A DNA stretch of 60,738 nt, taken from the NCBI GenBank assembly GCA_964353115.1, contig CAYGUI010000002.1, positions 1 to 60,738 on the forward strand. The letters are read 5' to 3'. The stretch is from an uncultured Gammaproteobacteria bacterium (GTDB lineage: Bacteria; Pseudomonadota; Gammaproteobacteria; JAGOUU01). Below are positions 59,855 through 60,738 of this stretch, piece after piece. The notes under the pieces are model-generated. The model did no database searches, was not told where the DNA came from, and was given only the letters and a program-made list of their open reading frames with translations. How positions within the stretch are numbered: position 1 is the stretch's first letter; each line of letters begins with the position of its first letter. Made by a program: the position numbers and the translations under genes.

Positions 59855-60738
59855 CCAATACCAAAACTGCTTAATCGCTTGGGCCTCAAAAATTTCATGA
59901 GGCCCAATTATTTTAACCCCAATATTTTCTAAATAATTTTTTATTAAGCTAGACTTGCTCGAATAATCAAACTCTAAATAAGTAATATTTTTATTCAAAT
60001 ATTTTTTTATCTTCTCAAAATAATTATTATCAATATATTTATTTGGTACGGTATTAATAATAATATTATAAAATTCTAAATGCTCAATATTTTCTTTACG
60101 GCTTAAAACTCTATAATTTTTTATATTGTTTTTTTCTAATTCAAGAATAATGCCGCGAGTAGTTGCGCTGTTGCCGAGGAGTAAAACTCCCCCCGGCGCT
60201 GACGCGCCATTTTGTGGGGAAAACCCCCCCGGCGCTGACGCGCCACCCCCCTTTACTAAGGGGGGTAAAAAAAACCTCTGTCGTCTGTGCTGACATCTCC
60301 CCTTTATAAAAGGGGGGTAAAACCCCTCTGTCGCTTTGCAGCGACATCTCCCCTTTACAAAAGGAGAGATTATAGCCCCCTTATTAAAGGGGGCAGCCCG
60401 GCGAAGCAAAGCTGCGCCTGGGCGGGGGTTTTTATTCACAAAACTGAAAAATAATATCTCCCAAATCGCACTCTTATCAGTATTAATTGCAAAAACTTCA
60501 TCATTTAATATCTTTAAAGTATTAACAGAATTAATTTTTGCTGAATCATCATCAAAAAAATCGATATATTTAGTAATTTCTTGCTTAAACGGCGTGGTAA
60601 TACTAAAACCAGAAAAATATTTTTTAGCATAGTTTTCAAAAAAATAATCTAATTCGTTATTTTCAAGTTTAATTTTCAAATATAAATTATTTATATTATT
60701 TTTTTTAAAATTATTATTATGAAAAATATGACCAATAC
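59792..60738 (-). CDS. aroE: shikimate dehydrogenase-like protein carrying an in-frame repeat insertion; 5' end runs off the window
   Basis: GFSITTPFKQ (catalytic Lys) and AINTDKSA (Asp), then after ~85 repeat-derived residues VLLLGNSATTRG (dinucleotide-fold position), INTVP and GPHEIFEAQAIKQFWYW. The frame stays open upstream of the track TTG start to position 60738 (..IGHIFHNNNF..). Confidence 0.7.
   Translation of the reverse strand, partial: IGHIFHNNNFKKNNINNLYLKIKLENNELDYFFENYAKKYFSGFSITTPFKQEITKYIDFFDDDSAKINSVNTLKILNDEVFAINTDKSAIWEILFFSFVNKNPRPGAALLRRAAPFNKGAIISPFVKGRCRCKATEGFYPPFIKGRCQHRRQRFFLPPLVKGGGASAPGGFSPQNGASAPGGVLLLGNSATTRGIILELEKNNIKNYRVLSRKENIEHLEFYNIIINTVPNKYIDNNYFEKIKKYLNKNITYLEFDYSSKSSLIKNYLENIGVKIIGPHEIFEAQAIKQFWYWKNPRACGAAPFNKGAITPLS
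60183..60432. repeat. ~250-bp GC-rich mosaic hairpin repeat block inside the aroE reading frame
   Basis: CCGGCGCTGACGCGCC x2, CCCCCCTTTACTAAGGGGGG, CTCTGTCG...GACATCTCCCCTTTATAAAAGGGG x2 and GCCCCCTTATTAAAGGGGGC...GGGGGTTTTT. Confidence 0.9.

Follow-up and report, generated by a model that had tools for sequence, protein, structure and literature searches.

Small hairpin repeats that lie in frame within protein-coding genes are an established phenomenon. Copies of the Rickettsia palindromic elements (RPEs) encode a conserved peptide, and about half of them are found inside open reading frames (ORFs) (Ogata et al. 2000, 2002, summarised in PMC10969869). In-frame ORF fusions of small repeats have also been called 'not unusual' for ERIC and QMITE1 (PMC10969869), and a QMITE2 copy gives Coxiella Dugway enhC a 33-amino-acid C-terminal extension together with its stop codon (PMC5896051). 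Here we analyse a 60,738-nucleotide stretch of DNA (the window; contig CAYGUI010000002.1) from an uncultured Gammaproteobacteria bacterium, in which a composite GC-rich hairpin-repeat block lies in frame inside aroE, the shikimate dehydrogenase gene, and a second copy of the repeat forms the 3′ end of the same gene. A first-pass annotation of this DNA had offered the insertion as a novelty for a gammaproteobacterium, which was overstated given the precedents of ERIC and of Coxiella QMITE1/2 (PMC10969869, PMC5896051). The locus is of value for its new element family, which belongs to a lineage that has been little sampled. What is new here is the translated multi-unit mosaic, the second copy giving the C terminus and stop codon, and the asymmetry between an intact substrate-binding domain and an eroded NADP-binding domain.

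The block comprises 252 nucleotides (84 codons) at 60182-60433, in good agreement with the interval 60183-60432 proposed for a GC-rich block in aroE by the first-pass annotation. Its GC content is 58% overall compared with 20-26% in the flanks, and in 100-nt windows the GC fraction is 0.48-0.67 in the block versus 0.14-0.24 in the flanking coding DNA. We placed the insert with a profile built from the 150 best homologues. When the insert is deleted, the protein aligns to this profile as one domain (191.8 bits, profile positions 244-482), and the same profile splits the real protein into residues 1-95 and 184-297. From this alignment and from loop lengths, 80 codons (PRPGAALL...GASAPGG; codons 104-183, 60188-60427 on the minus strand) are absent from all homologues. 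The A-run and T-run of the element also encode the adjoining K-N and V-L codons, which brings the whole block to 84 codons; of the earlier figure of about 85 repeat-derived residues, the origin in the repeat stands and the count becomes 80 extra residues. The comparison with homologues that had been proposed as a check gave a block length that is a multiple of three, with boundaries set at the protein level only and no empty site for comparison.

The insert breaks the protein directly before VLLLG, strand β1 of the Rossmann fold, and after the helix that follows the catalytic Asp. From this Asp, the nucleotide loop's first Gly is 100 residues away, compared with 15-33 (median 22) in 149 homologues, 105 of which have exactly 22. 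Because a few homologues carry 6-11 residues more than the median at the same point, the loop is, judged from the alignment, naturally length-variable and permissive. The profile split, the loop lengths and the AlphaFold2 model described below all agree with the original proposal of an insert in a permissive surface loop between the substrate-binding and NADP-binding domains. A 12-sequence MAFFT alignment had put GGGASAPGG of the insert under the GAGGAA loop of the family; alignments with at least 40 homologues and the profile alignment identified this as an artefact, the true nucleotide loop being VLLLGNSATTRG.

The frame was said to stay open through the repeat, and it does: all 314 visible codons of the ORF are open, and the gene's own frame is the sole stop-free frame of the six through the block. 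The other five contain 2-5 stops (mean 3.4), from which the Poisson chance of a given frame being open is about 0.03. The insert peptide consists of 60% Pro, Gly, Ala, Arg and Lys and has a net charge of +13. GC content at its first, second and third codon positions (GC1, GC2 and GC3) is 0.59, 0.64 and 0.53, without a coding-type pattern, and a search of 5.8 billion proteins gave no match to the peptide at E≤0.01.

The repeat family is assembled from four modules: X (AAAACCCCTCTGTCG-N8-CGNCAT), H1 (CTCCCCTTTACAAAAGGGGAG), H2 (CCCCCTTATTAAAGGGGG) and Y (AAAACCCCCCGGCGCTGACGCGCC), the inverse of the last being Y′. Modules are present at nine loci of the window in differing orders and both orientations, and eight of the nine loci are intergenic, the aroE block being the exception. 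The canonical unit, X-H1-H2-Y′, is 101-107 nt long and is found at 29473-29575 and 59754-59854, and in inverted orientation at 49857-49960 and 50594-50700; a variant unit, Y-H2-H2-Y′, lies at 39357-39462 and partial units lie near 7760-7960. Unit ends form a terminal inverted pair, AAAAACCCC and GGGGTTTTT, which pairs in all six aligned copies. In the consensus fold of these copies, the pair makes a 10-bp outer stem around three or four GC-rich hairpins, and three stem pairs show compensatory double changes.

Within aroE the modules run, on the plus strand, in the order Y, Y-H2, X-H1, X-H1-H2-Y′. A repeat search with spacing 36 and pattern matches resolve 60183-60245 into two Y modules (AAAAC-C6-GGCGCTGACGCGCC), a 36-nt tandem duplication that is read as GASAPGG twice. 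A repeat family with spacing 50 defines the next part (60246-60317), with an H2 hairpin at 60246-60265, a degenerate X at 60267-60296 and an H1 hairpin at 60297-60317. The remainder, 60318-60433, is a near-canonical X-H1-H2-Y′ unit by repeat search and by alignment with the consensus fold, and over its first 82 nt it shares 80% identity with the intergenic copy at 59748-59829. The repeat search thus gives the block internal duplications of 36 nt and 50 nt. As the modules recur at eight other loci of the window and the RNA fold has a z-score of -9.7, the block is not a product of chance.

Intergenic copies usually have one or two open frames, and these differ between copies. On this sequence evidence the family is not adapted for coding as RPEs are, and, since the intergenic copies lack a common open frame, the peptide would be a by-product rather than the purpose of the element, which between genes looks like a bidirectional terminator or REP-type structure. 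Matches of 22-25 bits to the Burkholderia anti-hemB small RNA (RF02837) at 59777-59847 and 60327-60436 were rejected against the gathering score of 49.5; they fall on the Y′-H2-H1 triple hairpin and probably reflect a generic likeness of three hairpins and a U-run. An Rfam scan of the window placed only transfer-messenger RNA (tmRNA) above threshold, and no intron or other family for the block. No direct repeat that could be a target-site duplication is recognisable at the element ends, where A and T runs blur the boundaries; Pfam scans of the window ORFs found no transposase and no Y1-transposase domain, no GTAG or CGTC tag was seen beside the element stems of the window copies, and blastn found no match of the block to plasmids.

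Single modules also appear elsewhere. The X-module pattern AACCCCTCTGTCG-N8-CGNCATCTCCCC, with 26 fixed bases, occurs in hairpin clusters of unrelated metagenome-assembled genomes (MAGs) in GTDB: rabbit-gut Clostridia, Christensenellaceae, Burkholderiales and Casimicrobiaceae. The H1-H2 pair was found once, in metagenome contig SDBU01190884.1, immediately 3′ of an ORF that, by visual inspection rather than by Pfam, resembles DUF559; no similar ORF turned up when the window and the other pattern loci were scanned for the motif. Recurrence of X and of H1-H2 in unrelated genomes is far above a rough chance estimate, and recurrence across unrelated phyla hints, at the level of sequence, at widely shared mobile hairpin modules, with convergence as the alternative. 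In the window, two direct element copies that are 98% identical, 49856-49960 and 50593-50697, bracket two small ORFs of the overlapping type (72 and 93 amino acids, 50055-50557). By size and arrangement alone the ORFs look like a toxin-antitoxin cassette, and the bracketed pair could be a repeat-bounded mobile or duplicated unit.

The parallel with RPEs drawn in the first-pass annotation is fair as a functional analogy. Like RPEs, the aroE block derives from a small palindromic repeat (about 100-150 bp) that lies in frame in a metabolic gene, at a fold-compatible site, in an AT-rich genome. The element shares with them palindromic units of 101-107 nt at nine loci in 60 kb and, in this one gene, an in-frame peptide consisting of 80 internal residues and a 20-residue C-terminal tail. 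The traits that define RPEs are lacking: the copies have no shared frame or peptide, and the other eight loci are intergenic. This genome also belongs to a different phylum, the insert combines several units in a mosaic where an RPE is one element, and the peptide shows no homology, at the protein level only, in the 5.8 billion proteins, which we assume include RPE-bearing Rickettsia proteins. Coxiella burnetii QMITE1 and QMITE2 and enterobacterial ERIC resemble the element in being gammaproteobacterial, small inverted repeats that are mostly intergenic or in 3′ untranslated regions, with an occasional in-frame fusion (PMC5896051, PMC10969869). A QMITE measures 150-190 bp or more and has defined terminal inverted repeats as well as direct repeats, whereas the unit here consists of four short GC hairpins in a cluster, although its own terminal inverted repeats give it a likeness to MITEs. 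The pneumococcal SPRITE, a rho-independent-terminator-like repeat (PMC10969869), is similarly dispersed and terminator-mimicking, and the hairpins here are bracketed by an A-run and a T-run; the element differs in the G-run between its hairpins and its U-run, and the sequences are unrelated.

Short-hairpin mosaics in both orientations, almost exclusively intergenic and often at 3′ ends, are typical of E. coli REP/BIME and of Neisseria NIME, which is composed of RS elements and dRS3 (PMC3898611). In architecture and distribution, as judged from its copies, the element is closest to these REP/BIME- and NIME-type mosaics and to MITEs. Such mosaics are not normally translated; the aroE block is in frame, and the window contains no RAYT or IS110-type gene. 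As a separate observation, the window has three exact copies of a dRS3-like 20-mer, ATTCCCGCCTGCGCGGGAAT, at 7840-7859 (+), 37404-37423 (+) and 57995-58014 (-). All 20 of its positions agree with ATTCCCRCCTRCGCGGRAAK, the consensus for the Nf1 subtype of Neisseria dRS3 (PMC3898611), and zero copies are expected by chance. Two of the three copies adjoin tandem half-site repeats (TGCGCGGGAATGACGGTTT three times at 7849-7915, and a 22-nt unit four times at 57894-58003), and the tmRNA gene at 36985-37353 (-; 205 bits) lies beside the dRS3-like repeat array at 37399-37460. These copies, unexpected in a gammaproteobacterium of 32% GC, hint at a target of an IS110/Piv-type recombinase.

Fungal mitochondrial GC clusters, or double-hairpin elements, are mobile GC-rich palindromes of very AT-rich genomes that sometimes lie in protein-coding genes without breaking the frame. 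They are organellar, and their sequences are unrelated to the element described here.

A canonical X-H1-H2-Y′ element, recognised by repeat searches and alignment, occupies 59754-59854 between the convergent genes nadE and aroE, and contains a terminator-like hairpin followed by a T-run at 59832-59854. It supplies the last 20 codons of the ORF (KNPRACGAAPFNKGAITPLS) and the stop codon TAA, as read from the translation and frame table (59792-59854, minus strand), and the family profile stops at WYWKNP, before this element-derived tail. The ORF runs into this copy with the orientation and frame (K-N-P-R) that it has on reaching the internal block. The two copies differ by 1 nt, through which the H1 hairpin encodes either SPFVKG or PLS-stop. 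The copy at 59754-59854, in giving aroE a tail and a stop codon, parallels the QMITE2-enhC case. On its other side is nadE, the glutamine-dependent NAD synthetase gene (58106-59755, plus strand; Pfam CN_hydrolase and NAD_synthase), whose stop codon TGA (59753-59755) abuts the element. This exact NadE sequence is not on record, and its closest database relatives are 58% identical, the nearest named ones coming from uncultured Gammaproteobacteria MAGs. In these 58%-identical relatives htpG, not aroE, follows nadE, and their contigs are without any repeat module.

The host ORF runs on the minus strand from 59792 to beyond 60738, as seen from its translation, and Pfam, NCBIfam and Foldseek place it nearest to shikimate dehydrogenase. 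The N terminus of the gene lies outside the window, and the TTG start given at 60679 is therefore a listing artefact. The ORF matches Pfam Shikimate_dh_N (PF08501, substrate-binding domain) with E=6.5e-15. It scores 85.7 bits against TIGR00507 (aroE), below the curated cutoff of 200.2, a shortfall due partly to the missing N terminus and the insert, and 69.9 bits, also below cutoff, against PRK09310 (bifunctional AroD/AroE). An exhaustive HMMER search of 1.84 billion cluster representatives returned 1435 homologue matches, the best of which are only 39-42% identical; these closest homologues are fusion proteins of 470-500 amino acids. Among the top 30 homologues, 26 are 430-515 amino acids long and pair their residue ~240 with query residue 1; the first residues in the window, IGHIFHNNNF, fit the HSIGHxFHN motif of the fusion family. 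Judging from these lengths, this offset and this motif, the window end probably truncates a bifunctional aroD-aroE fusion gene, of which the 3′ half is in view. Close orthologues were sought in two ways: the whole ORF gave only three weak matches in a word-indexed database, and the insert-deleted protein had no match in GTDB genomes. A six-frame profile search found no second shikimate dehydrogenase or AroD gene in the window, and an ORF matching DAHP_synth_1 was rejected as a shikimate-pathway gene, being KdsA.

The two domains of the enzyme have fared differently. The substrate-binding domain (window residues 1-101; 60434-60736, minus strand) keeps 15 of 16 strongly conserved family columns, including the catalytic residues Lys51 (TTPFK) and Asp87 (NTD), and scores 114.6 bits, close to the family median of 117. 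The NADP-binding Rossmann domain with its C-terminal helix (residues 184-294; 59855-60187, minus strand), delimited by profile alignment, column check and structure prediction, departs from the family at 7 of 15 conserved columns. In the database, only six sequences have a lower ratio of C-domain to N-domain score, all of them truncated fragments, and pairwise comparison with PDB sequences detected the N-domain alone. The first-pass claim that the landmarks of the enzyme are kept therefore holds for the substrate-binding half and fails for the NADP-binding half; LLLGNSATTRG does lie at the dinucleotide-fold position given there, but it is a degenerate nucleotide-binding loop. We ran AlphaFold2 with a 90-sequence alignment. 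Predicted local distance difference test (pLDDT) values are 83-97 on both domains (94-97 substrate-binding, 83-95 NADP) and about 31-61 in the insert, which is modelled as a disordered excursion with residues 118-177 below 50; the repeat-derived tail, residues 302-314, is also below 50. Top Foldseek matches of the model are all shikimate dehydrogenase structures, such as 2hk7. The folding check suggested earlier for the insert-bearing protein gave two folded domains and a disordered insert. In this model the insert is compatible with the two-domain fold, and the model is silent on activity.

We favour, with moderate confidence, the reading that the block is a tolerated passenger: a non-coding hairpin repeat in a permissive surface loop that is read through as peptide. 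A lineage-specific non-coding hairpin repeat, normally found between genes, would have entered the interdomain surface loop, perhaps in several steps. It comprises one near-complete unit and extra X-H1, Y-H2 and Y modules, and the 36-nt and 50-nt duplications produced part of it. The block would persist because its length is divisible by three and it has no stop in the gene's frame, and the ribosome would read it through as an 80-residue, basic, Pro/Gly-rich disordered passenger. The second copy, at the 3′ end, would have replaced the native C terminus and stop codon with 20 element-derived codons. RPE, ERIC and QMITE, including the QMITE2-derived enhC extension, are precedents that support this reading. 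Within it, the stop-free frame and the length-variable loop make it most likely that the protein still folds into two domains with a disordered loop. Translation of the ORF probably continues, with purifying selection relaxed, and is supported by 314 open codons despite flanks that are 20-26% GC and stop-dense. Catalytic competence is doubtful: dehydrogenase activity appears weakened or lost rather than intact, and may be so because the cofactor site looks compromised.

Several observations weigh against a passenger tolerated in this way. In the NADP loop GAGGA has become GNSAT (GNSATT in the query against GxGGxx), with serine at column 190, where 150 of 150 homologues have glycine, and about 18 residues are absent after SRK (NRT motif). 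With 63.6 bits, where the median is 125, the NADP domain is more degenerate than that of any other full-length homologue, in a homologue set chosen by query similarity, mainly via the N-domain, which biases the comparison of the two domains. The gene has the lowest GC, GC1 and GC2 of all window ORFs, the pattern that relaxed constraint yields in an AT-biased genome. Finally, the sense RNA of the block is very stable (-149 kcal/mol, z = -9.7 versus shuffles) and contains hairpin-plus-U-run motifs that could terminate or stall expression; a terminator scan found only two weak candidates on the gene's strand inside the block. The same observations favour the main rival, a young pseudogene or decaying gene, in which the insertion would have ended a working dehydrogenase through RNA structure, termination or misfolding, the pathway being dispensable or covered and the open frame residual. 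So do the shortfall against TIGR00507 (85.7 bits versus a cutoff of 200.2), the contrast between a C-domain at half the family median and a normal N-domain, and a window without any other shikimate-pathway gene. We take decay seriously as a possibility and do not consider it probable. All 314 visible codons are open in AT-rich DNA, the block is open in the gene's frame only, conservation of the substrate-binding domain matches that of typical homologues, and AlphaFold2 is confident on both domains. In a rough neutral simulation that ignores indels, about 6.6% of the AT-biased mutations that fall in the C-domain give rise to a stop, and the 112-codon C-domain stays stop-free with p = 0.31, 0.08, 0.03 and 0.004 at 10, 20, 30 and 40% amino-acid divergence. 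Neutral decay of the size needed would leave the frame open with p of roughly 0.004-0.08; because 7 of 15 columns have changed and the C-domain is nevertheless stop-free, its erosion, with neither a stop nor a frameshift, indicates that an expressed ORF is still under selection, albeit relaxed.

Another reading is that the enzyme is still active or has been repurposed, in a lineage with a hitherto undescribed RPE-like system in which mosaics accumulate stepwise in essential genes and selection filters for the stop-free frame. We consider this unlikely. Were it true, the block would be the first translated multi-unit BIME/NIME-type mosaic, and the protein a natural experiment in a Rossmann enzyme that tolerates an 80-residue insert and a non-canonical GNSAT loop. 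Co-option in the stricter sense, in which the peptide itself is selected and the 80-residue loop, perhaps in concert with the changed nucleotide loop, confers a novel property such as another binding partner, localisation or cofactor behaviour, is very unlikely. It would account for the gene's frame alone being open through a block whose growth was probably stepwise, with a 36-nt in-frame duplication among the steps, and for the 1-nt difference from the closest intergenic copy that avoids the stop ending the 3′ copy. However, the peptide has no homologue, its codon positions lack a coding-type GC pattern, the insert is predicted to be disordered, and its sequence is that of a non-coding repeat whose other copies do not agree in frame. 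Assembly errors typically occur at repeats, and the block is highly structured, so that a collapsed or mis-joined repeat, or removal before the mature protein by an intron, intein or translational bypass, was also weighed. We regard either as highly improbable, as the two flanks together make up a single gene, each half being correct in order, orientation and frame. An intron or intein was rejected, with no Rfam intron or other family above threshold and no intein signature residues at the insert boundaries (P...G|V). A separately translated C-domain was also rejected, as VLLLG is not preceded by an in-frame ATG or GTG that has a Shine-Dalgarno sequence.

The window has 32.5% GC and contains several other features of note. 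A GDA1/CD39-family nucleoside phosphatase (CD39-type NTPDase; 4406-5521 (+), E=8e-52) is eukaryote-like. CD39-type NTPDases are known from Legionella, and the gene suggests a host-associated lifestyle. It is followed by a 741-aa ORF (5527-7752) without a Pfam match, whose 5′ end has about nine copies of the 9-nt tandem repeat TCCAGTTTC (5553-5642), a potential length-variable region. Pfam matches are also lacking for two adjacent giant ORFs of 1308 and 2083 aa (15339-25527 (+)) and for four tandem paralogous ORFs of about 127 aa (54965-56567 (-)). Directly after fimV and before the repeat cluster lies an unusually GC-rich 119-aa ORF (49455-49814 (+)) with a lipoprotein-like N terminus and a His/Arg/Pro/Gly-rich body. 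Directly downstream of truA, a 238-aa ORF (51498-52214 (+)) has no Pfam or NCBIfam match. The slot after truA in the asd-fimV-truA cluster of other gammaproteobacteria is, we presume, often taken by trpF; if this ORF were trpF, it may bear on whether aromatic amino-acid synthesis is retained.

An open frame alone is no proof of an intact gene, and what the locus means depends on the state of the protein. If the protein is made and active, aroE would be an independent, non-rickettsial case of selfish hairpin repeats being absorbed at permissive enzyme loops. If the gene is instead decaying, it would record repeat invasion alongside gene loss in an AT-rich, probably host-associated gammaproteobacterium.

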